The translations under genes were made by a program, and so were the position numbers. The notes under the pieces were generated by a model. It was not told the origin of the DNA. It did not search any database and saw nothing but the letters and a program-made list of their open reading frames with translations. From the NCBI GenBank assembly GCA_027491415.1, contig JAOZFH010000006.1, forward strand, positions 1-43,600: DNA of 43,600 nt, written 5' to 3'. Source of the stretch: Thermoproteota archaeon. GTDB lineage: Archaea; Korarchaeota; Korarchaeia; Korarchaeales; Korarchaeaceae. Positions 21,741-43,600 of this stretch are shown one piece after another; within the stretch, counting starts at the first letter, position 1, and every line of letters begins with the position of its first letter.

Positions 21741-22292
21741 ATGAGCCTGAGGGCAATCGAGGAGGACCCCCACAGGAGGGGGGTGCTCCGGGCCGAGGTG
21801 GACATCCCCCACTTCGGCAGGGTCGTGCTCAAGGACATGTTCCTGATGTCTACCCGATGGTGGGCGGACTTCATGGCCGGGCTGACCGTCTTCGTGGGTG
21901 AGAAGGGTCTGAGGCCGGTCTTGTACTACTCCGCCTACAGGATGATGAAGGTCCACGACTCCAAGGGCATAGTCTCAACCAAGGAGAAGCTGTCTCTCAG
22001 CGAGATGCTGGACGTGGCCAGGAGGGTTTACAGGTCCCTGGGGTTCGGCGACATCCTGTCGATCACGTTAGGAGAGGAGAAGGTGGTTGTCAGGGTAAAG
22101 GACTCGTTCGAAGCCAGGGGGAGGAGGTCGGATTCGCCCGTGTGTCACTTCACTGCCTGCCTCCTCGCCGCTCTGGTGGAGGACACGACCGGCATTCGAA
22201 TAGGCCCGATGATTGAGAGGGAGTGCCAGGCCGCTGGGGCGGACGCGTGCACATTCGAAGCGGAGGTCCTCGAGGGAGGAACCCGCAGTTGA
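21741..22292 (+). CDS. V4R-domain protein (CorQ-like candidate sensor)
   Basis: LGFG, SFEA, PVCHF and ERECQAAGADACTFE motifs; stop overlaps the next start (TTGA). Confidence 0.85.
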   Translation: MSLRAIEEDPHRRGVLRAEVDIPHFGRVVLKDMFLMSTRWWADFMAGLTVFVGEKGLRPVLYYSAYRMMKVHDSKGIVSTKEKLSLSEMLDVARRVYRSLGFGDILSITLGEEKVVVRVKDSFEARGRRSDSPVCHFTACLLAALVEDTTGIRIGPMIERECQAAGADACTFEAEVLEGGTRS

Positions 22293-23446
22293 GTCCACCT
22301 GGGGGCCGCGCCGAGGCGATAGCAGTCGTGAGGTCCATCGACGGCTGCGACTCCGCGTGCTCCTACTGCCCGCGCGCCGAGGAGAGGGTCCCTCCCCGTG
22401 GCTTCCTTGACCCCCACAGGGTTGAGGTCTTCTTGGACTCGCTGATAGGCTCTGGCCTGAGGCCCGACGTGTACTTCACGTGTCCTAACCCGCTGGCTCA
22501 CCCTAGGGTGGAGGAGCTGATCGCGGCGGCGACCGACAGGGGCTTGGAATCTCATGTGTTCGTCCCCGCGGCGGCCGGCTCCCGCGAGAGATCTCCAGAA
22601 CGCCTCATGAAAGCAGGCGAGATATTCCTGTTCTGCTACTCGACCTCCGAGCTTAAGCGCGCCAAGAGGTTCGTCAGGAGGCTCCTCGTGGCTGGGAAAT
22701 CCATGAGGTTGATGTCCATCTACGTCCCCGGGGTGAACGACGAAGAGATCACAGAGATGGTGAACATCGGCAGGTCGTGGGGTCTCCAGGTGTGGGTCTC
22801 TCCCCCGGTCTTCTGCCCGGTCACCAGGTGCCCAGCGGATGTGGTCAAGGCTATGCAGGGCAGGGGGTACGACGTCTCAGATCCCTTCGGAGAGTTCATG
22901 GGGATCTACGAGATGAGGGTGACGTTCCACCGGGACTTTCCGGTATACCTCCTCTCAGGCCCCAGATGTCGCAGGGAATGCAGGATAATCTACATGGACC
23001 CGTCCGGCTTGGTTGGCAAGTGCCCCATGCTGGGCCAGCTCAACCCAGCCTACGGGCCGGAGGAACTCCGGAGCATACTCGGCTCGGGGTGCGAGCTGAT
23101 AGAGCGCTCCGCGGCCTACTCGTTCATCCCCTCCCTCAGGCTGGTCACGAAGGACGGTCAGATCCTGGATGAAGACGATCTGGACCTGCTCTCTATGCTG
23201 GAGTCGACGGGGAGCCTCAGCGCCGTCGCGAGGAGCCTCGGGCTGTCCCCCCCAGCGGTGTACAGGAGGCTCAAGAGGATGGAGTCCGCGCTGGGGTTCA
23301 AGCTCTTCGAGTCGTGGAAGGGCGGCGCCGGACGGGGAGGCGTGGTCCTCACGCCGGAGGCCCTCGAGCTGGTGCGGTCCTACCGGGGCTACAAGGCTGG
23401 CCTGGGGATCGTCCGTTTTAACCTCATGTTAAACGAAAGGGCTTAG
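22289..23446 (+). CDS. Radical-SAM-fold protein fused to a C-terminal ModE/LysR-type HTH (candidate regulator)
   Basis: CDSACSYC (CxxxCxxC), C..IYMDPSGLVGKC twitch-like segment, then GSLSAVARSLGLSPPAVYRRLKRME..GGAGRGGVVLT; GGAGGA SD before TTG 22289. Confidence 0.8.
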   Translation: MSPPGGRAEAIAVVRSIDGCDSACSYCPRAEERVPPRGFLDPHRVEVFLDSLIGSGLRPDVYFTCPNPLAHPRVEELIAAATDRGLESHVFVPAAAGSRERSPERLMKAGEIFLFCYSTSELKRAKRFVRRLLVAGKSMRLMSIYVPGVNDEEITEMVNIGRSWGLQVWVSPPVFCPVTRCPADVVKAMQGRGYDVSDPFGEFMGIYEMRVTFHRDFPVYLLSGPRCRRECRIIYMDPSGLVGKCPMLGQLNPAYGPEELRSILGSGCELIERSAAYSFIPSLRLVTKDGQILDEDDLDLLSMLESTGSLSAVARSLGLSPPAVYRRLKRMESALGFKLFESWKGGAGRGGVVLTPEALELVRSYRGYKAGLGIVRFNLMLNERA

Positions 23447-23512
23447 TTAAATTTTTTACCTAAATCGGAGAATTTTTCTTGAGCGGGTTAAAAAAATCCC
23501 TAGGGGGGGTGA
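23417..23512 (+). promoter_or_regulatory. AT-rich promoter/operator region of the coo-hdr operon
   Basis: TTTAAC-N5-GTTAAA at 23417-23433, further GTTAAA at 23446 and 23487, GGTGA SD before cooF. Confidence 0.55.
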
Positions 23513-24136
23513 ATGGCAACCGTCCCTCCGAGCTACCTGGAATACCTCATCTACGTCGACCCTGAGAGGTGCGTGGGATGTAGGAGCTGTGAGATAGCCT
23601 GCGCGGTCGAGCATTCCTCCTCGAAGGAGCTGTTTCAGGCCGTCTTCGAGGACCCTGCGCCCAGGCCGAGGACGAAGGTCGTCCCGGCAGCCGGCGTTTA
23701 CGTCCCCATGAGGTGCATGCACTGTGATCCGGCCCCCTGCGTCGAGGCCTGCCCTACGGGGGCCATGCACAGGACGGACGAGGGCTTCGTCGTATCCGAC
23801 CTCGAGAAGTGCATAGGGTGCAGGACCTGCCTCCTCGCCTGCCCCTTTGGCCACCCGACCTACGACTTTAGGAGGAAGGTGGTGAAGTGCGACCACTGCG
23901 TTGACAGGTTCCGCGTTGGACTACCGCCAGCGTGCGTCGAGGCCTGCCCGACGGGGGCCCTGAGGTACGGCAGGGCGGAGGACATCTTGGACAGGGAGAA
24001 GATCAGGAGGGCCGCGGAGATGGTGCTCGGACTTGCGGAGGCGGCCGTGGTGTACGCCAAGCCCGCCGAGAGGGCTCCCAGGTCCCCCCTGGCATCTCTC
24101 AGGGAGATGTATGAGGCCGTGAGGTGGTCAGAATGA
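23513..24136 (+). CDS. cooF: CooF-type 4x[4Fe-4S] electron-transfer protein
   Basis: CVGCRSCEIAC, CMHCDPAPCVEACP, CIGCRTCLLACP and KCDHC..PACVEACP; ATGA overlap with cooS. Confidence 0.9.
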   Translation: MATVPPSYLEYLIYVDPERCVGCRSCEIACAVEHSSSKELFQAVFEDPAPRPRTKVVPAAGVYVPMRCMHCDPAPCVEACPTGAMHRTDEGFVVSDLEKCIGCRTCLLACPFGHPTYDFRRKVVKCDHCVDRFRVGLPPACVEACPTGALRYGRAEDILDREKIRRAAEMVLGLAEAAVVYAKPAERAPRSPLASLREMYEAVRWSE

Positions 24137-26091
24137 CTGCCGCGGAGGTTGAGAGGGGTAAGCCCGGGTCAGAGAGGGTCTACGAGAGGCTAATGAGGAC
24201 GGCCAGAAGGGAATTCTACGAGTCCGTCTCCATCGACCCCACCGTCCCCAAGCTCCTGGAGAAGGCCGAGATGGATGGCGCCGAGACGGCATGGCACAGG
24301 TACCTGGCTCAGCAACCTCAGTGCGGATTCGGTCTCCTGGGGGTCTGCTGCAGGAACTGCAACATGGGGCCCTGCAGGATCGATCCGTTCGGATACGGTC
24401 CCCAGAGGGGGGTATGCGGGGCCACCGCCGACACCATAGTGGCAAGGAACCTGATGAGGATGCTCGCCGCGGGGGCCGCCGCCCACAGCGACCACGCCAG
24501 GGACATTGTGGAGGTCTTCAAGGGGATACCCGAGGGGTGGGCCAAGGACTACGAGATAAAAGACCCAGAGAAGCTCAGGGGGATAGCTCGCGCCCTCGGG
24601 CTGGAGGTGGAGGGCAGGGAGCTGAACGACCTGGCGAGGGAAGTCGCCGAGATAATGGAGTGGGAGTTCGGCAAGCCCGGGGAGAAGCCCCTCAGGCTCG
24701 TGGAAGCCTACGCCCCCAAGAAGAGGATGGAGGTATGGAAGAAGGTCGGGATAGTTCCCAGGGCGATCGACAGGGAGGTCACGGAGATAATGCACAGGAC
24801 TCACATGGGAGTCGACGCCGACCCGCTCACCCTCATCGCCCAGGGACTCAGGTGCGCCCTAGCGGACGGGTGGAGCGGCTCAATGATGGCCACGCTCCTC
24901 AGCGATGTCATGTTCGGGACGCCGAAGCCGCTCAGGGCGGTGGCCAACCTCGGGGTGCTGAGGGAGGACGCGGTCAACATACTGGTGCACGGCCACAACC
25001 CAGTCCTGTCCATGAAGATAGCCGAGGTGGCCGGCGACCCCGAGCTGGTCCAGATGGCAAAGGACCTCGGCGCGGCGGGCGGGATCAACGTCGTCGGAAT
25101 GTGCTGCACCGGAAACGAGGTGCTCATGAGGCTTGGCGTCCCCATAGCCGGCAACATGCTCCAGCAGGAGCTGGCAATAGCCACCGGCGCGCTCGAGGCC
25201 GTGATCGTGGACTACCAGTGCATCATGCCGGCTATTGTGGACGTCGCCTCCTGCTACCACACCAAGGTGATAACGACGGAGCCCAAGGCGCACATCCCCG
25301 GCGCGATACACGTGGAGTTCGACAAGGCCAACGCCGTTGAGACCGCGAAGAAGATCGTGAAAATTGCCGTCGAGAACTTCAAGAATAGAAACCCTGACAG
25401 GGTAATGATACCGAAGGAGAAGTCAGAGCTGGTGGCCGGATTCAGCGTTGAGGCCATACTAGAGGTCCTCGGAGGCACGCTCGAGCCCCTCGCCGAGGCC
25501 CTCAGGACGGGGAAGATAAAGGGGATCGTCGGGATCGTGGGCTGCGTCAATCCGAAGGTCAGGCACGACCACAGCCACGTCACCCTGACGAAAGAGCTGA
25601 TCAAGAGGGACGTCCTCATTGTGGGCACCGGCTGCTGGGCCATCGCCATGGGGAAGCACGGCCTGCTCCTCCCAGAGGCCGCAGAGCTCGCCGGACCCGG
25701 ACTGAGGGATGTTTGCAAGGCCCTCGGCATCCCGCCGGCCCTTCACATGGGAAGCTGCGTAGACTGCTCTAGGATGCTGATAGCCCTGGCGGCGCTGGCG
25801 GAGCACCTCGGAGTCGACATACCCGACCTCCCGGCGGCTGGTTCCGCGCCGGAGTGGATGAGCGAGAAGGCCGTCTCCATAGGCTCCTACTTCGTGGCTT
25901 CCGGACTACTTGTGCACCTGGGGACGGTTCCTCCGGTGCTTGGCAGCAAGAAGGTCGTCGAGATACTCACCGACAAGGCGGAAGACCTAGTGGGAGGAAA
26001 GTTCCTGGTAGAGCCCGACCCGGTGAAGGCTGCCGAGCTCATCATGGCCCACATCCTGGAGAAGAGGAGGGCGCTGGGCTGGCCGGAGTGA
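24133..26091 (+). CDS. cooS: Anaerobic Ni,Fe carbon-monoxide dehydrogenase catalytic subunit
   Basis: QCGFGLLGVCCRNCNMGPC (D/B clusters); C-cluster ligands in HGHNP, MCCTG, DYQCIMP, VGC, TGC and GSCVD; SEKA. Confidence 0.97.
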   Translation: MTAAEVERGKPGSERVYERLMRTARREFYESVSIDPTVPKLLEKAEMDGAETAWHRYLAQQPQCGFGLLGVCCRNCNMGPCRIDPFGYGPQRGVCGATADTIVARNLMRMLAAGAAAHSDHARDIVEVFKGIPEGWAKDYEIKDPEKLRGIARALGLEVEGRELNDLAREVAEIMEWEFGKPGEKPLRLVEAYAPKKRMEVWKKVGIVPRAIDREVTEIMHRTHMGVDADPLTLIAQGLRCALADGWSGSMMATLLSDVMFGTPKPLRAVANLGVLREDAVNILVHGHNPVLSMKIAEVAGDPELVQMAKDLGAAGGINVVGMCCTGNEVLMRLGVPIAGNMLQQELAIATGALEAVIVDYQCIMPAIVDVASCYHTKVITTEPKAHIPGAIHVEFDKANAVETAKKIVKIAVENFKNRNPDRVMIPKEKSELVAGFSVEAILEVLGGTLEPLAEALRTGKIKGIVGIVGCVNPKVRHDHSHVTLTKELIKRDVLIVGTGCWAIAMGKHGLLLPEAAELAGPGLRDVCKALGIPPALHMGSCVDCSRMLIALAALAEHLGVDIPDLPAAGSAPEWMSEKAVSIGSYFVASGLLVHLGTVPPVLGSKKVVEILTDKAEDLVGGKFLVEPDPVKAAELIMAHILEKRRALGWPE

Positions 26092-26894
26092 TGGCCTTGC
26101 CCCTCAGGGTTCTCGTGGCCGGGAAGGGAGGGGTGGGCAAGACAACGGTGTCCGCCCTCCTCTCTCACTTTTTGCGCGACAGGGGTATGAGGGTCCTGGC
26201 GGTCGACGCCGACTCCGTTCCAAACCTGGGTATAGCGCTGGGCCTACCACCCGAGGTCGCGGGTTCCATAGTTCCCCTCGTGAGGAACGAGGAACTCGTG
26301 GAGCAGAGGACGGGCGCCCGACCCGGCCAGGCTTGGGGGGTCCTGTTTCGAGTCAACCCCAGGGTCGACGACCTGGCGGAGAGGTACGGGGTGAGCGTGG
26401 GAGGCGGCCTGAGCCTGCTGGTCGTGGGCAGCATAGACGCAGCCAAGCAGGGCTGCCTCTGTCCAGCAATTGCGCTGGCAAAGAGGCTCCTGAAGCACCT
26501 GGTCTCCTCCACCGACGAGTCGTCGGCGGTGATCGTGGACTCGGAGGCCGGAGCGGAGGTATTCGGCCGGGGGCTCGCCGAGAACTTCGATCACATGGTG
26601 TGCGTCTCCGAGCCCACGGTGGCCTCACTGGACATCTCCAAGCGCCTCCTCAGGATGGGCCGGCAGCTCGGGATCCGCGAGTTCTCCCTCATCGTCAACA
26701 AGATGCCTGAGAGAGGCGAGTCGCTCAGGGAAGCCATAGAGAGAAGGTTCTCCGGTGAGGCCAGGGCGTTTTTCGTCCCCAGCGACCCCGAGGTCCTGAG
26801 GGCGAGCATCGAGGGTAGGGGGGTGGGTACCCTCCCAGTCGACTCTCCAGCGGTCTCGGCCCTGAGGCGGACCTTCTCTGAACTGTTCGGGTGA
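26091..26894 (+). CDS. cooC: CODH nickel-insertion ATPase
   Basis: GKGGVGKTT, VDADSVPNL, GCLCP and DSEAG.E.FGRG motifs; TGATG overlap with cooS. Confidence 0.95.
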   Translation: MALPLRVLVAGKGGVGKTTVSALLSHFLRDRGMRVLAVDADSVPNLGIALGLPPEVAGSIVPLVRNEELVEQRTGARPGQAWGVLFRVNPRVDDLAERYGVSVGGGLSLLVVGSIDAAKQGCLCPAIALAKRLLKHLVSSTDESSAVIVDSEAGAEVFGRGLAENFDHMVCVSEPTVASLDISKRLLRMGRQLGIREFSLIVNKMPERGESLREAIERRFSGEARAFFVPSDPEVLRASIEGRGVGTLPVDSPAVSALRRTFSELFG

Positions 26895-26898
26895 TCAA

Positions 26899-28878
26899 AT
26901 GGAGTCGTCGGAGCCCAGGGTCGGAGTCTACGTCTGTCACTGCGGCAAGAACATCGCGGGCAAGGTGGATGTGAGGAGGGTGGCCAAGGAGGCTGGAAGG
27001 CACCCGAGAGTAGCCGTCTCTAGGGACTACTTCTTCATGTGCAGCCGGGCGGGGCAAGAGCTCATCAAGAGGGATGTGGAGGCGGGTAAGGTGGACAGGG
27101 TGGTCGTGGCGGCGTGCAGCCCCAAGCTCCACGAGCCCCTCTTCAGGAGGGTCGTGGTCGAAGCGGGCCTCAACCCCGGTTACATGGAGCAGGTGAACAT
27201 AAGAGAGCTGGTCTCCTGGTCAACCGAGGACCCCGAGGAGGCGACTCAGAAGGCCATCAGGTACGTCTTGGGGGGCGTGGAGAAGGTCCTGGCGGCTGAG
27301 CCCATCGAGGTTGGGGAGGCAGAGGTCGTTCGGGAGGCCCTAGTCATCGGAGGCGGGGTCGCTGGCCTCGCCGCGGCCTTGGACCTGGCGGAGAAGGGAA
27401 TCAGGGTTCACCTGGTGGAGCGCTCACCCACGGTGGGTGGGCTCATGGCCCTCTTGGACAGGGTGTTCCCGACCGGCGACTGCTCCCTGTGCATCCTGAC
27501 GCCCATGATGGCCGAGGCCGAGGCCCACCCACTGATCGACATCCACACCACCTCGGAGGTCGTTGAGGTATCCGGCTCGATCGGGGACTTCCGGGTGAGG
27601 GTGAGGAGAAGCCCCAGGTACGTGGATCCAGAGAAGTGCGTGGCGTGCGGGGTATGCGCCTCCAAGTGTCCTGTCGAGGTCCCGAACGAGTGGGACGCCC
27701 TCCTCGGCAAGAGGAAGGCCGCCTACATCCCGTATCCTCAGGCCACGCCGAGGGCCTACGTGATAGACCCGAACGCGTGTCTCTTCATCAGGGAGGGGTC
27801 CTGCGGGGCCTGCGTCGAGGCCTGCCCCACGAAGGCCATAGACCTCCACGAGGTGCCGCGGGAGTTCGAACTCAGGGTGGGGGCCATCGTGGTCGCAACC
27901 GGCGTCAGGGAGTACGACGCATCCAACCTCAAGAACTACGGCTTCGGGAGAATACCGGACGTGATAACCCAGCTCGGATTCGAGAGGCTGATCAACGTGA
28001 CGGGGCCCACCGGGGGGCACCTGAGGAGACCCTCGGACGGCAAGGTGCCGAAGAGAATAGTGTTCATACAGTGCGCCGGAAGCAGGGACGTGAACCACAA
28101 CCCCTACTGCTCGGGAGTGTGCTGCATGGTCTCGCTGAAGCAGGCCGAGATCGTGAGGTCCGAGTATCCGGACTCCAAGGTCTACATCTGCTACATCGAC
28201 ATGAGGACTGCGAAGAAAGGATTTGAGGAGATGTACGAGCGGGTCAGACGAGAGGGGGTAGTCTTCGTCCAGGGGAAGCCAGGGGAGGTCTGGAGGGACG
28301 GCGATGAACTAGTGGTGGAGGTGTTCGACAAGACCCTCGGCAGGAAGCTGGAGCTCAGGGCGGACCTCGTGGTGCTGGCCGCGGGATTGTCCCCGTCGGA
28401 GGGCACCCTGAAGGTTAGGGAGGTGCTCAACGTGGGAGCGGATCTCCACGGGTTCCTCCAGGAGCTCCACCCCAAGCTGAAGCCTGTGGAGACCTCTAGG
28501 CCGGGAATTTTCATCTGCGGTGGAGCCCAAGGCCCCAAGGACATCCCAGATTCGGTCGCTCAGGCGAAGGCGGCCGCCAGCGCTGCGGCTACAGTACTGG
28601 TGAGGGGGAGGGTTGAGGTCACCGGGGAGAGGGCCTACGTGGACCCGGAGCTGTGCGTCGGCTGCATGGCCTGCGCCGACGAGTGTCCGTTCGGGGCCAT
28701 CGTGGAGAGGGAAGGCAGGGCGGAGGTTGTCCCGGCCGCTTGCGCCGGCTGTGGAATCTGCCAGCCCGTCTGCCCGACCGGCGCGATAACCAGGAGGGCC
28801 TACGGGGTCGAGCAGGTGATGAGGCAGGTGGCCGGCCTCTTGGAGGCCGCGCCGACCTCGCGCGCGGGGGAGGTGTAG
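26899..28878 (+). CDS. hdrA: Heterodisulfide reductase subunit A (electron-bifurcating flavoprotein)
   Basis: GVYVCHCG, AACSP, GGGVAG, FPTGDCSLCILTP, inserted and C-terminal ferredoxin domains, QCAGSRD..YCSGVCC, GPKDIP. Confidence 0.96.
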   Translation: MESSEPRVGVYVCHCGKNIAGKVDVRRVAKEAGRHPRVAVSRDYFFMCSRAGQELIKRDVEAGKVDRVVVAACSPKLHEPLFRRVVVEAGLNPGYMEQVNIRELVSWSTEDPEEATQKAIRYVLGGVEKVLAAEPIEVGEAEVVREALVIGGGVAGLAAALDLAEKGIRVHLVERSPTVGGLMALLDRVFPTGDCSLCILTPMMAEAEAHPLIDIHTTSEVVEVSGSIGDFRVRVRRSPRYVDPEKCVACGVCASKCPVEVPNEWDALLGKRKAAYIPYPQATPRAYVIDPNACLFIREGSCGACVEACPTKAIDLHEVPREFELRVGAIVVATGVREYDASNLKNYGFGRIPDVITQLGFERLINVTGPTGGHLRRPSDGKVPKRIVFIQCAGSRDVNHNPYCSGVCCMVSLKQAEIVRSEYPDSKVYICYIDMRTAKKGFEEMYERVRREGVVFVQGKPGEVWRDGDELVVEVFDKTLGRKLELRADLVVLAAGLSPSEGTLKVREVLNVGADLHGFLQELHPKLKPVETSRPGIFICGGAQGPKDIPDSVAQAKAAASAAATVLVRGRVEVTGERAYVDPELCVGCMACADECPFGAIVEREGRAEVVPAACAGCGICQPVCPTGAITRRAYGVEQVMRQVAGLLEAAPTSRAGEV

Positions 28879-29793: not shown

Positions 29794-30272
29794 GCCTAGC
29801 GAAGCGCGTGCTCGAGATCTCCGGCCAGGACGTGACGAAGTGCTTCCAGTGCGCGGAGTGCACGTCCTCGTGCCCCAGCGCCGGGCTTGACGGCTTCTAC
29901 CCCCACAGGCTGATCAGGGCTATCCTCTTGGACCTGAGGGATGAGGTGTTTCGCGGGGATTACAAGCTGTGCATGCACTGCCACCTCTGCTCAGTCCGGT
30001 GCCCCGTGGGGCTGAACTTTCCAGAGGTTGCCATCGCGCTGTCCAACGTAGAAACCAAGGAGAGAGGCCCGGATAATGTGGAGCGGGCTTTCATCTCTGA
30101 ACTGAGCAAGAGAGCTTTTGTTAACCCTGCGAGGGTGGCGCTGTCCGCTCTGGGAGTTCGAGCTCTTGCGCTGGCTGGCCTACGCGGCCTGAAGCTGGCC
30201 GGCATGCTCGCCGAGTCCGGGTCGGTGAGGGAGGAGTACAGGCGGGAGGTGGCGAGGGTTGTCAGGGGATGA
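29790..30272 (+). CDS. hdrC: Heterodisulfide reductase subunit C
   Basis: CFQCAECTSSCP and CMHCHLCSVRCP; GTGA overlap with mvhD. Confidence 0.9.
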   Translation: MSLAKRVLEISGQDVTKCFQCAECTSSCPSAGLDGFYPHRLIRAILLDLRDEVFRGDYKLCMHCHLCSVRCPVGLNFPEVAIALSNVETKERGPDNVERAFISELSKRAFVNPARVALSALGVRALALAGLRGLKLAGMLAESGSVREEYRREVARVVRG

Positions 30273-33546: not shown

Positions 33547-33614
33547 TGGCGTTAATTCCTATCCTAGGATTGTCAAATTTCATCGATTGATGACTCGGCC
33601 TCTCTGGTTGCCGG

Positions 33615-35601: not shown

Positions 35602-35623
35602 CAGGCTCTCTCCACCATCGACG

Positions 35624-37153
35624 CTATCGCCCAACAACCTCACCTCCCAGCATGTAGGTACCTATCTCCTGAGCGGTCATCTGGCCAGCAGGCCGTATCG
35701 CAACCATCCTCCCGTCGTACATCACCCCTATCACGTCGCTGAGCTCGAGGATCTCATCCAGATCGGTCGACACGAGGAGTATGGCCGCACCGCCATCCCT
35801 GAGTCTTATCAGCATTTCCCGGACGAAGTTCGTCGACTTCACGTCCAGCCCGGCGGTCGGGTTCTCGGCGACGACGAGGCGTGCGTTCATGGAGAGTTCC
35901 CGCCCGACGATGAGCCTCTGGATGTTTCCGCCGGAGAGATACCTGACGGGGATGTCGATTCCTGGACACTTCACCTTGAATGTCTCGACGATCTTGGAGC
36001 AGAACTTCCTCAGAACCTCCCCCTTGATAATCCCCCGTTCACTGAAGGGGTTAACCCAGAACCTCTTCAAGGCGGAGTTGTCTACTACCGGGAGATCGGC
36101 CGCCACACCCCTTTCTATCCTCTCCTCCGGGATGTACGCCATCCCCATCTCTATGAGCTCGGAGACACTTCTCCCGGTGATATCCTGCCCGATAAACAGT
36201 ATGCGGCCGGACTTGACCGGCCTGAGTCCTGTTATGGCCTCGACCAACTCCTTCTGACCGTTACCCTCTATCCCGGCTATCCCGAAGATCTCCCCCTCGT
36301 GCACCGTAAAGGAGACTCCCTTCACCGCCAGCCCGCCCCGGTCCCCCTCCACCCGAAGGTTCTCAACCCGCAGGATCTCCTCGGCCGTCTCCTTAGGCTT
36401 CGCCCTCTCTACGCGAGTGGGTGCCACACGCTCTCCGACGACCAGCGCGACGAGTTCTTTGTCGTCCACCTCCTCCGGCTTTACCCGCGCCACGACCCTG
36501 CCCTTTCTCATCACGGTGATCCTATCGCTGATGGAGAGGGCCTCCCACATCTTGTGTGTCACGAACACGACAGACTTGCCCTGCTCTACCATGCTCCTGA
36601 GGGTCTCAAACAGGGCCTCGACCTCAGGCACCGCGAGTATTGAGGTGGGCTCGTCGAAGATGAGGACGTCGGCGTTCCTGTAGAGCAGCCTTAGGATCTC
36701 GACCCTCTGCTTCTCTCCCGCTGAGAGCTGGTCTATCTTGGCTTCTGGATCTACTTTGAGCCCGACGCTCTCTGAGAGCTCTCTGATTCTTTCTTTCGCC
36801 TCCTCTAGGTTGAGGAGGTGCGGGAGGTCGCTCATCCCCAGAATGATGTTCTCTGCCACAGTCAAGTTGGGAATTAGGGTGAAGTGCTGGTGGACCATCC
36901 CTATCCCAAGGTTCATAGCATCTCTGGGGCTCCTGATGTCCACCTTCCTGCCCTTGACGTAGATCTCGCCCTCATCCGGCCTGAGGCATCCTGCGAGAAT
37001 TTTCATTAGAGTGGTCTTGCCAGCGCCGTTCTCCCCCAGCAGGGCGTGTATCTCCCCCCTCCTCAGGTCGAAATCGACCCCCCTGTTGGCCACGACCCCG
37101 CCAGGGTACACCTTCACGATTCCCTTCATCAGAACGACTTCTTCTGTGCCCAT
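35624..37153 (-). CDS. ABC transporter ATP-binding protein, tandem-domain CUT2 type
   Basis: GENGAGKTT, GMVHQHF, DEPT and LSGGNIQ motifs. Confidence 0.93.
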   Translation of the reverse strand: MGTEEVVLMKGIVKVYPGGVVANRGVDFDLRRGEIHALLGENGAGKTTLMKILAGCLRPDEGEIYVKGRKVDIRSPRDAMNLGIGMVHQHFTLIPNLTVAENIILGMSDLPHLLNLEEAKERIRELSESVGLKVDPEAKIDQLSAGEKQRVEILRLLYRNADVLIFDEPTSILAVPEVEALFETLRSMVEQGKSVVFVTHKMWEALSISDRITVMRKGRVVARVKPEEVDDKELVALVVGERVAPTRVERAKPKETAEEILRVENLRVEGDRGGLAVKGVSFTVHEGEIFGIAGIEGNGQKELVEAITGLRPVKSGRILFIGQDITGRSVSELIEMGMAYIPEERIERGVAADLPVVDNSALKRFWVNPFSERGIIKGEVLRKFCSKIVETFKVKCPGIDIPVRYLSGGNIQRLIVGRELSMNARLVVAENPTAGLDVKSTNFVREMLIRLRDGGAAILLVSTDLDEILELSDVIGVMYDGRMVAIRPAGQMTAQEIGTYMLGGEVVGR

Positions 37154-37214
37154 ACCCACTCACCGGAGCGGCTGAGCGGTTTTATCTGGAAAAAGGGGGT
37201 GGTGAGAGGGATTT

Positions 37215-38240
37215 TTACCCTCCACCAGCCCAGCGCTCGGGATCCCAGTCCTCGTAGATGGGGACTTGGATCTCGCCGTTGAGTATCTTCTGCTGGGCTT
37301 CTTCCACAGCTGCAACGACGTCCTGTGGGATCTGCTTCTTGAGGGTCGGATTCCAGACGAGCTTAGCCCACCCCTCTTTCATGCCCCAGTTGATTATCCC
37401 TCCGTGGAATGTGCCAGCCCTCACGGAGTCCACCACGTAGCGAACGAACGGCTTGAGATCCCAAGTAACGCTTGCGATGACCACATCCGGCGCGAGGTCG
37501 GTCTGGTTGACGATGTTACCGATCGCGTAGCCCTCGACGCCTGCCTCCTTGAAGGCCTCGAAGACACCGTACCTCTCTGCGTAGATCACGTCGGCTCCAG
37601 CCTCTATCTCGGCGAGGGCCGCCTCTTTAGCCTTGACCGGATCAAACCAACTCTCGAGGAAGATCACCTTGATCTCCACATCCGGGTTGACCGACTTGGC
37701 CCCTGCGCAGAACGCGTTGACGAGCCTGTTGACGTCGGGCACCGGGTATGCCGTGACCACGCCAATGACGTTGGTCTTCGTGAGCTTACCGGCTAATACT
37801 CCAGCCAGGTAAGCCGCGTCCTGGATCCAGTAGTCGTACAGCATCACGTTGGGCGGCCACTCGACGTCTGTGGGGCCAGAGCCTTGGGCGAAGTACACGT
37901 TCGGAAACTCCTTGGCCAGCTTTCTGGTTACCTCGTTGTACCCCCAGCTGTGGGGAAATATCACCTGATATCCCTCGGCTATGTACTCCCTTATCACCCT
38001 CTCCACGTCCGCCGTGTCCACCTTCTCCGTGTAGACGTACTCGATGTTCAGCTCCTGCTCGGCCCAGGTCATAGCCTCGTGCAGGGCAGTGTTCCAAGGC
38101 TCCTCTATGGGGGTCACGTAGATGACAGCCACCTTGAGCTTCTCCTCCTGGGGCGCTGAACCCTTGGTTGCAAAGTAGGCCCCGGCGGCCACCAAAACTA
38201 TGAGGACGGCCACAATAATGCCCAAGTACCTGCTACTCAG
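37215..38240 (-). CDS. BMP-family substrate-binding protein
   Basis: N-terminal TM anchor, AYLAGVLAG, NAF.AGA and WFDP.K.KEAA motifs; start is CTG 38240 (good SD) or TTG 38225. Confidence 0.9.
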   Translation of the reverse strand: MSSRYLGIIVAVLIVLVAAGAYFATKGSAPQEEKLKVAVIYVTPIEEPWNTALHEAMTWAEQELNIEYVYTEKVDTADVERVIREYIAEGYQVIFPHSWGYNEVTRKLAKEFPNVYFAQGSGPTDVEWPPNVMLYDYWIQDAAYLAGVLAGKLTKTNVIGVVTAYPVPDVNRLVNAFCAGAKSVNPDVEIKVIFLESWFDPVKAKEAALAEIEAGADVIYAERYGVFEAFKEAGVEGYAIGNIVNQTDLAPDVVIASVTWDLKPFVRYVVDSVRAGTFHGGIINWGMKEGWAKLVWNPTLKKQIPQDVVAAVEEAQQKILNGEIQVPIYEDWDPERWAGGG

Positions 38241-38394
38241 GCTGCCTCCCCCCTAAGGCTGAGCCTCTAGGCTCGGATGCTTTTAAACTATGGTAGTCGG
38301 TCAGAACAATACCTCTGACTGTTTAACTTCAGCTGATCTCCTTTCTGATGATCCATCTCTCTGAGGCCGTCTCCTAAGCTTCGGATCTCGTGAG

Positions 38395-40344
38395 TCAGAC
38401 CAACCTCGACTTGAGCTTCTCCAATAGGTTCTTGTGCCTATCGGCGACGACGAGGCCGTCCATCTTCTCCACAACCTCTTGGAAGCGGAACAGGTCAAGG
38501 TGAGGCAGGTACATAGAGGCCATGAACTCCTCTTGGAACCTGGGATGAGCCGCCAGTTCATAATACCTGATCTTCTGCGCGATTTCCCAGCACTCTCTTC
38601 TCTTGTCGATTGATATGAGAGCAACCCTTGCTCCTACACCAGCAGCGTTTCCCACCTGCGTTATCTTCTCCAGTGGAAAGTCTGGCAGCATCCCGATCCT
38701 CTTGGCGCTGGCTGGGTCGATGTAGAGCCCAAACGCCCCTGCCATGAACACCCGCTCCACGTCCTTCACAGAAACCCCCATTTCGCTCATGAGGATCGAG
38801 GCCCCGGTGTGCATGGCCGCCTTCGCCTTCTGGAGCTCTCTGACGTCCCGCTGCGTGATCACTATATCCTTCCCAATTGCCGTCTCGTCTGCAAAGGCCA
38901 GGATGAACTCCATTCCGTCTGGTCCCTTTCTGATCCTCTCATGCTCGCGCTCCAGTATCTTGCCGGTCGTGTCTATCACTCCGGCGCTCAACATCTCTGC
39001 TAGGGCGTCCACGATGCCCGACCCACAGATCCCCTTCGGGCTCACCCCGTCTACCACAGAGTATTTCACGTCGAGGGTGTTGGGGTCGATCCACACCCTC
39101 TCGATGGCCCCTGAGGTGGCCCTCATCCCGAACTTTATGTGAGCTCCCTCGAAGGCCGGCCCGGATGCGCAAGAGACCGCGTGCATCTCATCCGAATTTC
39201 CTATCACGATCTCTGTGTTAGTACCCACGTCTATCATGAAGGAGAGTTCGCTTGACAGGTGAATTCCCGTGCTGAGCACATCAGCCACAGCGTCCGCCCC
39301 AACAAAGCCGGCGACGTTGGGCAGCAGGTGAACGTTTCCAGTTGGGAGCATCTCCACTCCAAGGTCACAGGCCCTAACATCGAGCGGGCTGTCGATCACT
39401 GGGGTGTAAGGCGCCTCAGCCAAGTCACGGGGGGGGAGACCCAAGAAGAGGTGGTGCATGAGCGTGTTGCCAGCCACTACGAGTTCGACGACCAGCCTCG
39501 GGTCGACTCGGGCAGACTCGCAGGCCTCACGAATGAGGCCGTTGATTCCCTGAATGATCACCCTATGAAGCTCTCTGAACCCCTCTTCCGTCCTGCTGTG
39601 AGCTATCCTGGCGATGACGTCTTCTCCAAACGGAATCTGTGGGTTGGGAGCGGAGGAGACGGAGACCAGCTCGCCGCTCCGCAGGTCCACTAGATAGCCC
39701 GCCAGCTTTGTCGTCCCTATGTCTACGGCGAATCCGTAGAGTCTCTCATCTTCTCCCGGTCTCACGTCTAGCAACCCGACATCCGTATGCCACACTATCG
39801 TGACGGTCCAGTTTCCCTTCTTGACGGCACGTGGGAGGTACCTCAGCACACGCAGATCCGCCCGAAGGCTTCCTTTGTGGGGGAGTTTACTGATCAGGCG
39901 TTCGAAGTGAGCCCTCGGGTCGCTGAGACTGGGCTTTGGGAGCTTTAGAACAGCGATGTGGGCGGCAGGGTTGAGCTCGACTTCTACATGCTTGCCCTCA
40001 ACAAGCAACCTCTGCCTCCCGCTTCTACTCTGCTCCGGAACTTCCACGACAACCTTTCCCCTGCCAGAGAACCTGGCCTGGCACGCCAGCCTGAACCCGG
40101 CCCTCAGCTCACCTGGTTCCAGGTACCTCTCTTCGCTAGAGCTTGGAGGGCTCAGCAACTCTCTCCCCTCTCTGATTATCACCTTGCACTTCCCACAGAG
40201 TCCGAGTCCTCCACAAATTGACGTTATATCGACTCCCAGGTCTTTAGCGGCCTCCAAGATGGTTTTGTCAGTAGAATACCACCCTCGGCGGCCTTCAGGT
40301 TGAAAAATGGCTAGGAGACCCCGTTTCTTGGTTGGATAATCCAT
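38395..40344 (-). CDS. ASKHA-type reductive activator of corrinoid proteins (RACo/DUF4445) with N-terminal [2Fe-2S] domain
   Basis: CGGLGLCGKC..RLACQ, DIGTTK, GFVGAD, DVGTNTE, GPAFEG, GICGSG, AGAFG and GNAA motifs. Confidence 0.93.
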   Translation of the reverse strand: MDYPTKKRGLLAIFQPEGRRGWYSTDKTILEAAKDLGVDITSICGGLGLCGKCKVIIREGRELLSPPSSSEERYLEPGELRAGFRLACQARFSGRGKVVVEVPEQSRSGRQRLLVEGKHVEVELNPAAHIAVLKLPKPSLSDPRAHFERLISKLPHKGSLRADLRVLRYLPRAVKKGNWTVTIVWHTDVGLLDVRPGEDERLYGFAVDIGTTKLAGYLVDLRSGELVSVSSAPNPQIPFGEDVIARIAHSRTEEGFRELHRVIIQGINGLIREACESARVDPRLVVELVVAGNTLMHHLFLGLPPRDLAEAPYTPVIDSPLDVRACDLGVEMLPTGNVHLLPNVAGFVGADAVADVLSTGIHLSSELSFMIDVGTNTEIVIGNSDEMHAVSCASGPAFEGAHIKFGMRATSGAIERVWIDPNTLDVKYSVVDGVSPKGICGSGIVDALAEMLSAGVIDTTGKILEREHERIRKGPDGMEFILAFADETAIGKDIVITQRDVRELQKAKAAMHTGASILMSEMGVSVKDVERVFMAGAFGLYIDPASAKRIGMLPDFPLEKITQVGNAAGVGARVALISIDKRRECWEIAQKIRYYELAAHPRFQEEFMASMYLPHLDLFRFQEVVEKMDGLVVADRHKNLLEKLKSRLV

Positions 40345-40417
40345 CCAACCATCGTTATGGTTCAACTAACTATAATAGTTTGATCCCCTTGCCCCCGGTA
40401 GGCAGGGTGGGTCTGCC
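40345..40417. promoter_or_regulatory. Divergent promoter region with two short palindromes
   Basis: AACCAT-cgtt-ATGGTT (40347-40362) and AACTAT-a-ATAGTT (40368-40380). Confidence 0.5.
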
Positions 40418-41074
40418 ATGAGTGAGGGGGAGGCTATCCTGAGGGGTTTAGCCGAGTCTGTGATCGATGGCGACGAGGACCGCGCGCGGGAGTTTGCAAA
40501 GAAAGCGGTCGATGCCGGGATAGACCCGCTGACAGCGATAAAGGAGGGTCTCATGAGTGGCATGAAGGTGGTCGGCGACCGGTTCTCCCGGCTTGAGATC
40601 TTCCTTCCCGAGGTTCTTCTCGCCGCAGACGCCATGAAGGCGGCTCTTGAGATTCTGGAGCCGCTCATAGTGAAGGAAGAGAGGGAAAAGCTCACGCTGG
40701 GTAAGGTGGTCATAGGCACAGTGCAGGGCGACATCCACGACATCGGGAAGAACATCGTGGCCATGCTGCTGAAGGCGAACGGCTTCGAGGTTTACGACCT
40801 CGGCAGAGACGTTCCAATAGACGAGTTCATCAACAAGGCCGAGGAGGTCGGGGCAGACATAATCGCGATTTCGACCCTCCTGTCGACCTCAATGCCGTAC
40901 ATGGAAGATGTGATAAGGCTCCTGAAGGACAGGGGGCTTAGAGAGAAGTATAAGGTTATGGTGGGCGGAGGTCCCGTCACGAGGGAATTCGCGGAGGAGA
41001 TAGGAGCGGACGGGTACGGGGACAACGCCGAGGAGGCCGTCGAGGTGGCCAAGAAGCTCCTTGGGAGGGCGTGA
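40418..41074 (+). CDS. Methyltransferase cognate corrinoid protein (MtmC/MtbC/MttC family)
   Basis: FLPEVLLAADAM cap, GDIHDIGKNIV (DxHxxG), DLG.DV and MVGGGP motifs. Confidence 0.95.
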   Translation: MSEGEAILRGLAESVIDGDEDRAREFAKKAVDAGIDPLTAIKEGLMSGMKVVGDRFSRLEIFLPEVLLAADAMKAALEILEPLIVKEEREKLTLGKVVIGTVQGDIHDIGKNIVAMLLKANGFEVYDLGRDVPIDEFINKAEEVGADIIAISTLLSTSMPYMEDVIRLLKDRGLREKYKVMVGGGPVTREFAEEIGADGYGDNAEEAVEVAKKLLGRA

Positions 41075-41077
41075 AAA

Positions 41078-42448
41078 ATGGTGCTCTCCATCTGGGAAGT
41101 GCTGGACCTGGCCGAGAGCGGCCCCTACATGAGCGAGAGAGACTTCGACCTCAAGGTCGTCGCGAGGCTCTGCAGGGAGCTGGTCAAGGAGTACGACATA
41201 AGGTACGACCCAGAGCAGATAGTGACGAGCGACGACAGCCTCGCGGACGATGTCTTCGAGGCCGGCTTCAGGCTCGCCGTAGAGACTGGAATTTACTGCA
41301 TCAACACGAAGAGGATCATAAGATTCACGGAGGAGCAGATCAAGGAGGGCATCGAGTCGGCGCCTGAGCAGATAACTGTCGGGTGGGGCAAGGACGCGAG
41401 GGTCCTCTACGCGAGGAAGGTAGAGGACTCCAGGTACCCCATCATAATGGGCGGCCAGGCTGGGGCGCCGATACCGGAGGAGTTCCACCTCCCGATGGCC
41501 ATGTCATACATTAAGGAGCCCCTGATAGACACGATAAACCACGGCGGGCTAGCGGTGGTCGAGGGAAGAAAGGTCAAAACCGGGAGCCCGCTCGAAGTGC
41601 AGGCCACTAGGAGGGAGCTTCGGAACCTCAAGGAGGCGGCCAGGAGGGCCGGTAGACCAGGCATACACTTCTTGGCGGGGGAGAGCAGCAACACCTGCAT
41701 CGGGGACCTGGCGATTGCCTCCGACGAGTACATGCAGACCACGGACGCCCACCTCATTGCTATCCTAAACGAGCTGAAGACGGACTACGACAGGCTGACC
41801 AAGGCAGTGAACTTCACGGAGTACGGGGCCATGAACGTGACCCTGGTGGACCCAATCATTGGTGGCTACGCTGGGGGACCGGCCGGTGTTGCTGTGAACT
41901 TCGTCGCCTCGTTCCTGCTGGGGAGGCTCCTTTACCAGTCGGTGTACCACATATGCCATCCGATCCACTACAAGATCGTGAGCACCAGCGCCCCGGAGGG
42001 CATGTGGGAGCTCAGCGTCGTCGGTCAGGCGATGGCCAGGCACACCCCATTCATAATCATGGGGGACGTATGGACGTCGGCCGGCGCCGGGACCGAGATG
42101 ATATTCTACGAGATCACGGCGAACACGGTCACGAACGTCGTGACCGGCACGCACCCGCTGGGCGTCTCGGCCACCAACGGCACCTACCCGAACGCCAGCG
42201 GCCTGGAGACGAGATTCATGGCCGAGGTGGCTAGGGCCACCGTGAAGGCGGGCCTGAAGAGGTCGGAGGCCAACGAGATCGTGCTAGAGATGCTTAAGAG
42301 GTACAAAGACAAGCAGGAGAAGCCGGACATAGGGAAGCCGTTCCCAGAACTCTACGACGTGGCCACAGTGACCCCCAGGGAGTGGTGGCAGGACCTGTAC
42401 AACAGGATGAAGTCCGAGATCGCCACCCTGACGGGCCTCCCGCTCTGA
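41078..42448 (+). CDS. mtmB: MtmB-family corrinoid methyltransferase without pyrrolysine (paralog 1)
   Basis: DDSLADDVFEAG, AGRPG, LNELK, PIIGGYAGG, G.E.RFM.EVARA and GK.F.E.YD..TVTP motifs; no in-frame TAG. Confidence 0.9.
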   Translation: MVLSIWEVLDLAESGPYMSERDFDLKVVARLCRELVKEYDIRYDPEQIVTSDDSLADDVFEAGFRLAVETGIYCINTKRIIRFTEEQIKEGIESAPEQITVGWGKDARVLYARKVEDSRYPIIMGGQAGAPIPEEFHLPMAMSYIKEPLIDTINHGGLAVVEGRKVKTGSPLEVQATRRELRNLKEAARRAGRPGIHFLAGESSNTCIGDLAIASDEYMQTTDAHLIAILNELKTDYDRLTKAVNFTEYGAMNVTLVDPIIGGYAGGPAGVAVNFVASFLLGRLLYQSVYHICHPIHYKIVSTSAPEGMWELSVVGQAMARHTPFIIMGDVWTSAGAGTEMIFYEITANTVTNVVTGTHPLGVSATNGTYPNASGLETRFMAEVARATVKAGLKRSEANEIVLEMLKRYKDKQEKPDIGKPFPELYDVATVTPREWWQDLYNRMKSEIATLTGLPL

Positions 42449-42476
42449 TCCGCCCATCCACGACGTGGTGATCCTC

Positions 42477-43600
42477 GTGAAGAACAGGATGCTAGATATC
42501 GAGGATAAGGCATTCAGGAGCGGCCCCTACTGCGAAGAGAGAGAGTTTGACAGGATGATGATCCGCCGAATAAGGGAGCTGGTCAAGGAGTACGACATAA
42601 GGTACGACCCAGATCAAGTGATTCCCAGCGACGACAGCCTCGCCGACGCTGTCTTCGAGGCCGGCTTCAGGCTCTTCCTCGACCTGGGCGCCTACTGCAT
42701 GGAGACCAAGAGGAGGATACTGTTCACCGAGGAGGAGGTCTGGGAAGCCCTGCGTCAGCTCCCGGAGCACTATGTCATGGGAGAGGGGAAAGACCGCATT
42801 GTGATGAGGGCTCGGAAGCCAGAGGATCCAACCCCTCCGGTCCTGCACGGCGGTCCAACCGGCACGCTCTGCTCTGAGGGCGACGTTTACCTCAAGACCC
42901 TCATCTCATACGCCAAGGAGCCGGTGGTCGACTCCCTAGGCGCGGGATCCCTCAGGACCGTGAACGGCGTCGTCATCAGGACCGCCTCGCCACTCAACTT
43001 TCGGGCCGCCAGGATCGGCGCCGAGATGGCCAGGGAGGCCCTCATCCGGGCCGGAAGACCCGGTCTGCACATAAACGACGTCGCCGTGGTGGTCCCCGAG
43101 GCCAAGCTCGCCGCCCTAGATCCACACAGGGGGATAAGGCCCTCTGACGGTCTTCTAGTCTCCCAAATGGTCGAGCTCAAGGTGAGCCTCCACCACCTGT
43201 CCCTGGTGGAGCACCTGCTGGCCTACGGGTGCTTCATCAGCGACCTGATGACGCCAATTCAAGGAGGATACGCAGGCGGGCCCGAGGGAACCGCCATCGT
43301 GACGGTCGCGGAGCACCTCCTGGGCCTAATGTGCTACCACGCGGAGTATCACTTCCTCAGCCTCACGCACATGCTGACACTCAATAACACGGACAGGGGT
43401 GGCCTCTGGATAGTCAGCATCGTAGGCCAGGCGCTGTCTAGGAACACTAGGATACTGAGCGCCTACGACTGCTACGTTAGCTCGGGACCGGGAACTGACA
43501 TGATACTGAGGGAGGTGGCCGCGGGGGGTATAACGGCCTCCGTGAGCGGAATCCACCTTGAAGGAGTCGGGTCCGCCGGAGGTAAACTAGTTGACCACGC
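42477..43600 (+). CDS. mtmB: Second MtmB-family methyltransferase without pyrrolysine, 3' partial (absent from the ORF track)
   Basis: Manual translation from GTG 42477 (GGTGA SD) is open to the window end: DDSLADAVFEAG, AGRPGLHINDV, MVELK, PIQGGYAGGPEG. Confidence 0.88.
   Translation, partial: MKNRMLDIEDKAFRSGPYCEEREFDRMMIRRIRELVKEYDIRYDPDQVIPSDDSLADAVFEAGFRLFLDLGAYCMETKRRILFTEEEVWEALRQLPEHYVMGEGKDRIVMRARKPEDPTPPVLHGGPTGTLCSEGDVYLKTLISYAKEPVVDSLGAGSLRTVNGVVIRTASPLNFRAARIGAEMAREALIRAGRPGLHINDVAVVVPEAKLAALDPHRGIRPSDGLLVSQMVELKVSLHHLSLVEHLLAYGCFISDLMTPIQGGYAGGPEGTAIVTVAEHLLGLMCYHAEYHFLSLTHMLTLNNTDRGGLWIVSIVGQALSRNTRILSAYDCYVSSGPGTDMILREVAAGGITASVSGIHLEGVGSAGGKLVDH

Follow-up and report, generated by a model that had tools for sequence, protein, structure and literature searches.

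In Thermococcus onnurineus, CorQR, a CO-responsive pair made up of a V4R protein and a LysR-type helix-turn-helix (HTH) protein, lies beside the carbon monoxide dehydrogenase (CODH) cluster, as the available text of that study describes (PMC6557876). The accessible part of a survey of Ni-CODHs lists COGs of the HdrA/B/C/MvhD type (Hdr, heterodisulfide reductase) among the Ni-CODH-associated proteins and has one Korarchaeota CODH in its data set; no korarchaeal coo-hdr operon is described in that part (Inoue et al. 2019, PMC6344411). All genera of Korarchaeia keep partial HdrABC/MvhD, and the role of these proteins without methyl-coenzyme M reductase (MCR) is called puzzling in the portion available of a Korarchaeia survey (PMC10667645), whose main text does not contain the term CooS. 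A literature search, which covered few subscription papers, found no paper on CooS or CO dehydrogenase of Korarchaeum cryptofilum in connection with heterodisulfide. Here we describe a 43,600-nucleotide (nt) stretch, referred to as the window, of the genome of a hot-spring-type korarchaeon; in it, an operon for CO oxidation and Hdr subunits (coo-hdr) is followed by a block of corrinoid-dependent methyl-transfer genes.

The methyl-transfer genes resemble the MtmB/MtmC/MtbA/RamA pathway of Methanosarcina in comprising an MtmB-family first methyltransferase (MT1), a cognate corrinoid protein, a second methyltransferase (MT2) of the URO-D family and an ATP-dependent activase. In contrast to that pathway, the MT1 of our host lacks pyrrolysine (a leucine takes its place) and is present as two divergent tandem paralogues, an ABC importer replaces the permease, MT2 and the activase score below the family cut-offs, and there is no MCR downstream. 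Among pyrrolysine-free MtmB homologues, MtqB of Methanococcoides methylutens Q3c acts on tetramethylammonium/choline; the available text presents this as the first such function to be shown and the remaining pyrrolysine-free MtmBs as being of unknown function (PMC13044021). The MtqB/MtqC system is like ours in using a pyrrolysine-free MtmB homologue. Corrinoid methyltransferase sets in archaea without MCR also underlie proposals of methylotrophy for Culexarchaeia, Brockarchaeota and vent Korarchaeia with Mto, as far as the accessible portions of these reports go (10.1101/2022.04.06.487207, PMC10667645).

A methyl-transfer block at a site that is empty in two congeners

The window is the whole of one contig (C22) of the host genome (G000), which comprises 1,783,303 bp in 63 contigs and is 96.28% complete and 1.11% contaminated; comparison genomes are numbered from G001 onward. 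An earlier note on this DNA had read it as a coo-hdr operon followed by an MT2, an importer, an activator, a corrinoid protein and two MT1 genes. Pfam and NCBIfam profiles recover all of these, intact, with the second MT1 gene, mtmB2, running onto another contig, C41 (Table 1). The distance of 1.2 kb given in that note is about right: the MT2 gene begins 1,170 nt after the cooT stop and 1,421 nt after the hdrB stop. Both modules are of known kinds. We consider it probable that they are independent of each other and were juxtaposed by a lineage-specific insertion, and the note's caution that adjacency alone does not prove coupling was well placed.

Comparison with two congeners reveals the site without the block. 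In blastn alignments, the G004 locus matches C22:16799-31269 collinearly at 93.5% identity and then, 187 bp on, C41:434-4275 at 95%. Similarly, the G002 locus matches C22:21680-31251 and then C41:434-4269, at 85%. The sequence from 31270 to the contig end, together with about 417 nt of C41, is present in the host and absent at the same site in both congeners. There, cooT directly precedes a gene for an SsnA-type aminohydrolase and a second BMP-type importer, and it is these genes that lie on C41 in the host (SsnA, 553 bits; cut-off, 444). The end of C22 (43585-43600) and C41:1-16 overlap by 16 nt, and joining the two contigs yields an intact MtmB2 of 461 amino acids (aa). The assembly break falls inside MtmB2; MtmB1 and MtmB2 share a 173-nt stretch (79% alike), and this similarity may have caused the break.

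These alignments suggest that the block was most likely gained, or alone kept, by this species between cooT and the resident ssnA/BMP-importer cluster. G002 is the more distant congener and also lacks the block, so that one gain is more parsimonious than two losses. The block has a GC content of 0.594 versus 0.639 for the rest of C22, and the GC content at third codon positions (GC3) is 0.69-0.86 in its genes versus 0.81-0.90 in the flanks. In a search of sequencing runs, no RNA run contained the stretch, and the only run that did matched 0.13 of the sampled words; three runs yielded short contigs from divergent relatives, with no sign of transcription and no variant with the empty site.

Table 1. 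Positions of the coo-hdr operon and of the methyl-transfer block in the window, with profile matches
Feature	Position	Strand	Profile match or remark
V4R-domain protein, putative CorQR-type CO-responsive regulator partner	21666..22292	+	PF02830 E 2.4e-11, 44 bits (cut-off 31)
Radical-SAM + LysR-type HTH protein	22223..23446	+	PF00126 E 4.1e-12, 46.3 bits (cut-off 26.6); PF04055 E 1.8e-7
cooF, polyferredoxin electron carrier of CODH	23513..24136	+	Fer4_11 E 4.6e-22
cooS, Ni-CODH catalytic subunit	24124..26091	+	TIGR01702 769.7 bits (cut-off 478), positions 2-620/621
cooC, Ni-insertion ATPase	26091..26894	+	CbiA/ParA-type P-loop (Pfam); start overlaps cooS stop
hdrA, HdrA2-like flavoprotein	26899..28878	+	NF040770 801 bits, model 1-643/777 (cut-off 1100 missed)
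mvhD domain fused to 2x[4Fe-4S] ferredoxin domain	28882..29793	+	PF02662 E 1.9e-45
hdrC-like subunit	29739..30272	+	TIGR03290 53.2 bits (cut-off 160 missed); two CxxCxxCxxxC motifs
hdrB-like subunit	30259..31017	+	PF02754 E 3.5e-25, 2 stretches; TIGR03288 114.7 bits (cut-off 345 missed)
cooT-like 63-aa open reading frame, candidate Ni chaperone	31078..31268	+	PF10133 24.5 bits, E 3.4e-5, profile 1-58/60
Accessory methyl-transfer block	31270..43600, then C41 to about base 433		total ~12.75 kb, EamA to MtmB2
EamA/DMT-family permease	31506..32345	+	PF00892 E 4.8e-36
URO-D-family MtaA/CmuA-like methyltransferase, presumed MT2	32439..33431	+	PF01208 E 4e-64
BMP/PnrA-type ABC importer: two permeases, double ATPase, binding protein	33615..38225	-	PF02653 x2, PF00005, PF02608 E 2.1e-52
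RACo/RamA-like ATP-dependent reductive activase, N-terminal 2Fe-2S domain	38395..40365	-	PF14574 E 5.7e-99, PF17651, PF17650, PF00111
Methyltransferase-cognate corrinoid protein	40418..41074	+	TIGR02370 237.3 bits (cut-off 215.3); PF02310, PF02607
MtmB1, pyrrolysine-free MT1	41078..42448	+	PF05369 E 2.3e-107, 360.1 bits (cut-off 25)
MtmB2, second pyrrolysine-free paralogue, cut by contig end	42465..43600	+	PF05369 E 2e-80, 271.3 bits

The coo-hdr operon in Korarchaeaceae

CooS passes the curated equivalog cut-off for anaerobic Ni-CODH over its full length. By tblastn, cooS is present as a single copy in the host genome, and the hdrA, hdrB and hdrC genes of the operon are the only hdr copies. 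Neighbouring genes overlap or lie 3-4 nt apart, with the exception of a 60-nt gap before cooT. Three genes are added to the operon beyond the earlier list: those for the V4R protein, for the radical-SAM/LysR-HTH protein, whose true start is probably later than 22223, and for the CooT-like protein. This last open reading frame (ORF), previously unlisted, scores slightly below the Pfam cut-off of 27 bits. Its product begins V-C-E, and Cys2 of CooT is presumably a Ni ligand. With the cooT-like ORF the operon comes to its true end, and the inserted block starts beyond it. The two CODH maturation genes, cooC and cooT, enclose the hdr genes, an arrangement that makes CO or reduced CooF the likely electron donor.

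The domain set of a CoB-CoM (coenzyme B-coenzyme M) HdrABC is complete, with an FAD/4Fe-4S HdrA, MvhD, an HdrC with two 4Fe-4S motifs and an HdrB whose two CCG domains have this motif at residues 44 and 165, just as in the MvhAGD-HdrABC and HdrA2B2C2 systems of methanogens. Further, hdrA and the next gene jointly cover the HdrA2 model, the mvhD-ferredoxin protein matching model positions 647-773 and carrying two CxxCxxCxxxC motifs of its own. Unlike their methanogen counterparts, the host genes sit inside a coo operon, without a hydrogenase or F420 module and in a genome without MCR, and HdrA, HdrC and HdrB all miss the NCBIfam CoB-CoM Hdr equivalog cut-offs (Table 1). The missed cut-offs fit a different disulfide substrate, and the lack of MCR likewise points to a substrate other than CoM-S-S-CoB.

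V4R and LysR-type HTH proteins are encoded directly 5' of cooF, as they are directly upstream of cooF-cooS-cooC in T. onnurineus, and by this analogy we regard the pair as CorQR-like, putatively CO-responsive regulators. The host differs from T. onnurineus in that the electron sink appears to be Hdr and not an energy-converting hydrogenase, and in that its HTH protein carries a radical-SAM domain. It also differs from the Ni-CODH survey, where the Hdr-like COGs fall in a Wood-Ljungdahl context group according to the text available (PMC6344411), in being without acetyl-CoA synthase (ACS).

CooS scores above the family cut-off in 10 of 25 Korarchaeaceae genomes, host included, and partial matches occur at contig ends in two more (G001 and G003). 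We compared the CooS loci of nine relatives, in stretches of 7.7-20 kb each. The order cooS-cooC-hdrA-mvhD-hdrC-hdrB is kept in eight of them (G002, G004, G008, G010, G011, G013, G016, and G019). Genes for the V4R and radical-SAM/HTH proteins lie upstream of cooF in seven relatives, and cooF is 67-95% identical to that of the host in seven; the G016 contig starts inside cooS. A cooT-like ORF directly follows hdrB in six (G002, G004, G010, G013, G016, and G019). Judged by this shared gene order, the coo-hdr operon is an old unit, family-wide in Korarchaeaceae. In the ninth relative, G014 (locus L035, G014:C70), the order is cooF-cooS-cooC-cooT, without hdr genes between; this genome is the only family member with mcrA, and it has no MtmB homologue.

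None of the nine CooS stretches contains a gene for a corrinoid protein, MtmB, URO-D protein or RACo. Linkage in relatives, which the earlier note had put forward as a check on its idea of coupling, is therefore not what we see: in all 8 relatives that have coo-hdr, no methyl-transfer genes accompany it, the block is missing from its site in G004 and G002, and the methyl-transfer modules of G003, G004 and G005 are located elsewhere.

The methyl-transfer block and its relatives

The activase has all of the parts expected of RACo (C-terminal ASKHA, middle, linker and Fe-S domains) and is encoded by a single-copy gene in the host genome, as judged by tblastn. It falls below other NCBIfam models (RamA subfamily, 146.8 versus 500; AcsV, 506 versus 800). 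The corrinoid protein is the sole methyltransferase-type one in the genome, the other B12-binding matches being in frames of 516-580 aa. The remainder of mtmB2 lies at C41:9-251, and the Pfam match breaks off on C22 at profile position 369 and is taken up on C41 at 370. Both mtmB frames are open and without internal stop, and neither contains the UAG that would mark pyrrolysine. Indeed, the pyrrolysine position of Methanosarcina barkeri MtmB (1L2Q; match E 7e-71) aligns with a leucine in MtmB1. A 23-nt inverted repeat (33505-33527 / 40426-40448; 96% complementary) extends to about 35 nt; through it, the 5' end of the corrinoid gene recurs in inverted form immediately downstream of the last permease gene of the importer. 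On sequence, this resembles a scar left when the segment that holds the importer and RACo genes was inverted.

The presumed MT2 is the only member of the URO-D family in the host genome. In an alignment with MtaA (4AY7; E 3.5e-27) it keeps the HxC (here HIC) and GC positions, with H.C at residue 224; we take the HxC...C residues of MtaA to bind Zn. The protein misses the cut-offs for TIGR01463 MtaA/CmuA (165.4 versus 235.4) and for the MtaA/MtbA equivalogs (150.9 versus 400 and 110.1 versus 600). At E values of at most 1e-30 it has 53 relatives, with identities of 96, 60, 56, 46 and 45% and then at most 38%. Most of these come without an organism name; the named ones belong to Korarchaeota, Thermoproteota, Actinomycetota, Syntrophales, Promethearchaeota, Thorarchaeota and Bacillota, with no methanogen among them, and the cluster mates are named Ca. 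Korarchaeota archaeon. A search of metagenome contigs with the same protein gave 500 pattern matches, none of which was confirmed. By analogy with the chemistry of the family, the methyl acceptor of MT2 is most likely a thiol, and CoM is not assured.

Of 40 Korarchaeia genomes, four have MtmB homologues: the host, G003, G004 and G005. In G004, MtmB stands alone on contig C5, and CooS is on C11. In G005, the genes for a URO-D protein, MtmB and a corrinoid protein lie in a row, and no CooS scores above the cut-off. G003 has a 14.3-kb contig with URO-D, RACo, corrinoid and MtmB genes, whose products are 55-72% identical to those of the host, together with MtrH; no coo or hdr genes are found on this contig.

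The closest named relatives of MtmB1 are from Methanomethylicia, at 70-74% identity. Three loci of this group (LCB70, LWZ-6, and Bin S31) contain the same genes with the same tandem pair, a corrinoid-MtmB1-MtmB2 unit with a BMP importer. Identities to the host are 68-71% for the corrinoid protein, 71-74% for MtmB1, 61-63% for MtmB2 and 46-53% for the importer. These hosts, unlike ours, are cultured methyl-reducing methanogens; their units have no RACo, URO-D or EamA gene alongside, and the importer is convergent with the MtmB genes and not divergent from them as in the window.

We built a quick IQ-TREE tree of MtmB with 124 rows; from 119 homologue matches, 7 that were shorter than 430 aa were dropped. 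MtmB1 groups with a 79%-identical match and a clade of other Korarchaeal copies (SH-aLRT 86). This Korarchaeal group is sister to a Methanomethylicia clade of 23 rows (100), with a joint support of 96, and for MtmB2 the sister group consists of the Methanomethylicia copies of MtmB2 (99). The clades are sister and not nested, suggesting that the tandem MtmB pair predates the split of Korarchaeia and Methanomethylicia. A recent transfer from Methanomethylicia was considered and rejected on three grounds: MtmB1 does not nest within that clade but is its sister, the URO-D protein has Korarchaeota as its closest named relatives, and the GC3 of the block is only modestly lower. The unit known from Methanomethylicia is found here in a non-methanogen as well, accompanied by an MT2 specific to Korarchaeota and an activase of its own.

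Two kinds of evidence bear on the substrate. LWZ-6 grows on monomethylamine, which it reduces to methane with H2 according to the available text (PMC12244365), and the complete genomes of LWZ-6 and LCB70 contain only these two MtmB-family genes. The pair is, then, the only candidate found for that activity, and we infer that it serves monomethylamine use in LWZ-6. Other neighbours may point to a different compound. The importer is of the nucleoside-receptor family, with a BMP/PnrA-family binding protein, and is kept beside the MtmB pair in Methanomethylicia, and SsnA with its BMP importer lies directly right of the block on C41. Genes of the amidohydrolase superfamily occur within about 6 kb of MtmB in G003 (L033 4131-6442), G004 (L031 8518-12576) and G005 (L032 15462-16817), directly adjacent only in G004, where they include a creatininase-family gene; at the right flank of the host block itself stands SsnA (L037 434-1756). 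This gene content hints at an N-methyl amidine or heterocycle as the substrate. With such an importer and recurring amidohydrolases, an N-methylated heterocycle or amidine stays in play. It is possible, though we would not favour it, that the true partner of the block is the right-hand SsnA and second importer and that the MtmB pair acts on an imported N-methylated substrate, purine-like or an amidine, rather than on free monomethylamine. That amidohydrolases process the demethylated product, as this would entail, is likewise tentative. Against both stand the growth of LWZ-6 on monomethylamine with only this MtmB pair and the fact that the adjacency to ssnA arose by the same insertion as that to coo-hdr and is no better evidence of coupling. 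Regardless of the substrate, the block offers a compact gene set for a biochemical search for both substrate and methyl acceptor.

An aldehyde:ferredoxin oxidoreductase (AOR) gene and a gene for a 4Fe-4S protein adjoin corrinoid/MtmB genes, or lie no more than about 1 kb away, in LCB70 (L014 6890-9207), G029 (L043 2947-5149) and G005 (L032 5425-7620), and an AFOR_N fragment lies directly upstream of a third MtmB gene of the host, on C12 (L038 484-783). In G029, from another class of the same phylum, a Fer4-AOR-CooC-like-corrinoid-MtmB array (L043, G029:C9:74000-93999) adjoins a full ACS/CODH cluster with four CdhD-family genes, CdhC, CdhA and CdhB. This is a methyl and CO neighbourhood of the acetyl-CoA type, and here the earlier idea of coupling might indeed apply.

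Host pathways and possible functions of the two modules

Elongation factor 2 (EF-2) identifies the host as a korarchaeon, in answer to the call for taxonomic placement in the earlier note. The protein is 77% identical to proteins named Ca. Korarchaeum, with the next tier at 59% or less and matches named Lokiarchaeia and Bathyarchaeia at only 52-55%; Culexarchaeia, considered as host, is ruled out by the same protein. Profile searches of this genome gave no match to mcrA (PF02249), mcrG (PF02240), CdhC/ACS (PF03598), MtrH, MTHFR, MetE-type methionine synthase or ComB (CoB synthesis was not searched for), and control genomes matched in every search for missing methanogenesis and C1 genes. No mcr, acs or mtr gene is present in the window, as previously noted, nor in the rest of the assembled genome. 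With mcrA, mcrG, CdhC/ACS and MtrH all missing, neither CO-dependent methyl-reducing methanogenesis nor formation of acetyl-CoA from methyl and CO is supported.

The first of these had been one of two readings offered before. For it to hold, mcr would have to lie in the unassembled part of the genome, and the estimated completeness, the 63 contigs and the presence of mcrA in a family member, G014, leave some room for this. In addition to the two mcr genes and ComB, however, mcrA is missing from all 4 other genomes of the genus and from 23 of the 24 other family genomes searched. It occurs in 2 of the 41 genomes searched, host included, these being G014 and G033, from outside the phylum. G014, moreover, has no MtmB homologue and a coo cluster without hdr. 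We therefore rate hidden methanogenesis as hardly credible, which removes CO-powered methyl reduction as the story for a genome unable to make methane.

The proposals of methylotrophy without MCR, in the portions available, route the methyl group via MtrH into tetrahydrofolate/tetrahydromethanopterin and Wood-Ljungdahl branches; the host differs in having no MtrH, MTHFR or ACS and only a URO-D-type MT2. MtrH homologues are present in 25 of 40 Korarchaeia, mostly in genomes without MtmB. Within the genus they occur only in G003, beside its URO-D/RACo/corrinoid/MtmB module (L033 5510-6442).

We picture the two modules as follows. The coo-hdr operon most likely builds a soluble CODH-Hdr complex. 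CO would be oxidised at CooS, and electrons would reach the flavin of HdrA by way of CooF and the MvhD-ferredoxin protein and go on to the CCG site of HdrBC, reducing some disulfide, probably not CoM-S-S-CoB, and possibly ferredoxin too. The sole Hdr copy lying inside a CODH operon offers a lead on why Korarchaeia without MCR keep HdrABC/MvhD, the puzzle raised in the accessible part of the Korarchaeia survey (PMC10667645). The block provides every component of a corrinoid-based methyl-transfer chain. Its BMP-type importer would take up an N-methyl compound, be it monomethylamine or a small heterocycle methylated on nitrogen, from which the pyrrolysine-free MtmB1/MtmB2 pair would methylate the Co(I) corrinoid protein. 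RACo would re-reduce oxidised cobalt with ATP, the Zn-type, MtaA-like enzyme would use the methyl group to methylate an acceptor that is probably a thiol, and EamA may export a product. The lack of MCR, ACS, MtrH and MTHFR suggests that the block acts as a demethylase with methyl disposal or scavenging and supplies neither methanogenesis nor acetogenesis. Its simplest role is to demethylate an imported compound and to dispose of or scavenge the methyl group, and we infer that the two modules are expressed independently.

Several observations weigh against this picture of an insertion that joined two independent modules. There is no tRNA gene in the window, no integrase among the block genes and no direct or inverted repeat of at least 10 nt between the two block ends, so that insertion and two separate deletions (in G004 and G002) are separable only by parsimony. 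MtmB1 groups with other Korarchaeal copies as sister to Methanomethylicia, and on this tree the block may be old in Korarchaeia. By marker count, about 4% of the host genome is missing, and the assembly is in 63 contigs. The genes for EamA and the URO-D protein are co-directional with the operon and begin 238 nt after cooT, which makes read-through possible. RACo depends on low-potential electrons, for which CO oxidation is a possible source, and a thiol-methylating MT2 beside a thiol-regenerating Hdr is chemically suggestive. Further, the host encodes a homologue of ComA (phosphosulfolactate synthase) despite lacking MCR (G000:C28:47123-48199, minus strand), fused to a TrmB-type HTH, and some sulfonate-thiol chemistry is possible on this account. 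ComA is found in 7 of the 41 genomes searched, four of them other family members without MCR. The fusion gene (L036 9124-10200) adjoins a gene for a sulphur-transport-family protein.

Some of these observations fit the other reading offered in the earlier note, a non-methanogenic, thiol-based methyl/CO metabolism. CO oxidation by CODH-Hdr could be coupled to methyl-thiol turnover, for example in a methyl-S-X / X-S-S-Y cycle with HdrBC reducing the disulfide, and selection could have favoured the block at this site because the CO-responsive regulators would control it together with the operon. The co-directional EamA and URO-D genes, the MtaA Zn-site positions kept in MT2, the ComA homologue and the fact that the adjacent hdrABC is the only Hdr in the genome are all in line with such a link, as is the Hdr of Korarchaeia without MCR having no assigned substrate in the text available (PMC10667645). 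Against it, the modules are unlinked in every relative examined, which is one half of the outcome that the earlier note said would refute its idea. Eight relatives carry coo-hdr with no methyl-transfer genes beside it, at least seven genomes (G013, G019, G010, G016, G008, G011, and G002) have no MtmB anywhere, and the modules of G003, G004 and G005 lie away from coo-hdr. An AT-rich, TATA-like stretch at 31470-31490, seen by eye just 5' of EamA, suggests that the block has its own promoter. Finally, we know of no reaction that, without MCR or an analogue, makes a heterodisulfide from a methyl-thioether. Coupling through a thiol cycle is accordingly unlikely in our view, and selection of the site for co-regulation is equally improbable. 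The idea that Korarchaeaceae without MCR run a CO-driven, flavin-based Hdr on some thiol/disulfide couple and that the acquired MtmB-corrinoid-MtaA-like chain of this species methylates the same thiol pool is a long shot. If true, it would join CO oxidation and methyl turnover in a non-methanogenic energy or detoxification cycle, as a surviving or re-assembled fragment of methyl reduction.

The part of the window to the left of the operon (1-21600) begins with an NuoL/Mrp-type antiporter subunit gene cut at the contig start. It also contains two AOR genes, one at 5361-7298 that has a 4Fe-4S partner and one at 11106-12941, and a possible toxin-antitoxin pair formed by a nucleotidyltransferase gene and a PIN-domain gene. 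Further genes encode a pyridine-nucleotide disulfide oxidoreductase, a nitroreductase, a double thioesterase and an M42 peptidase.

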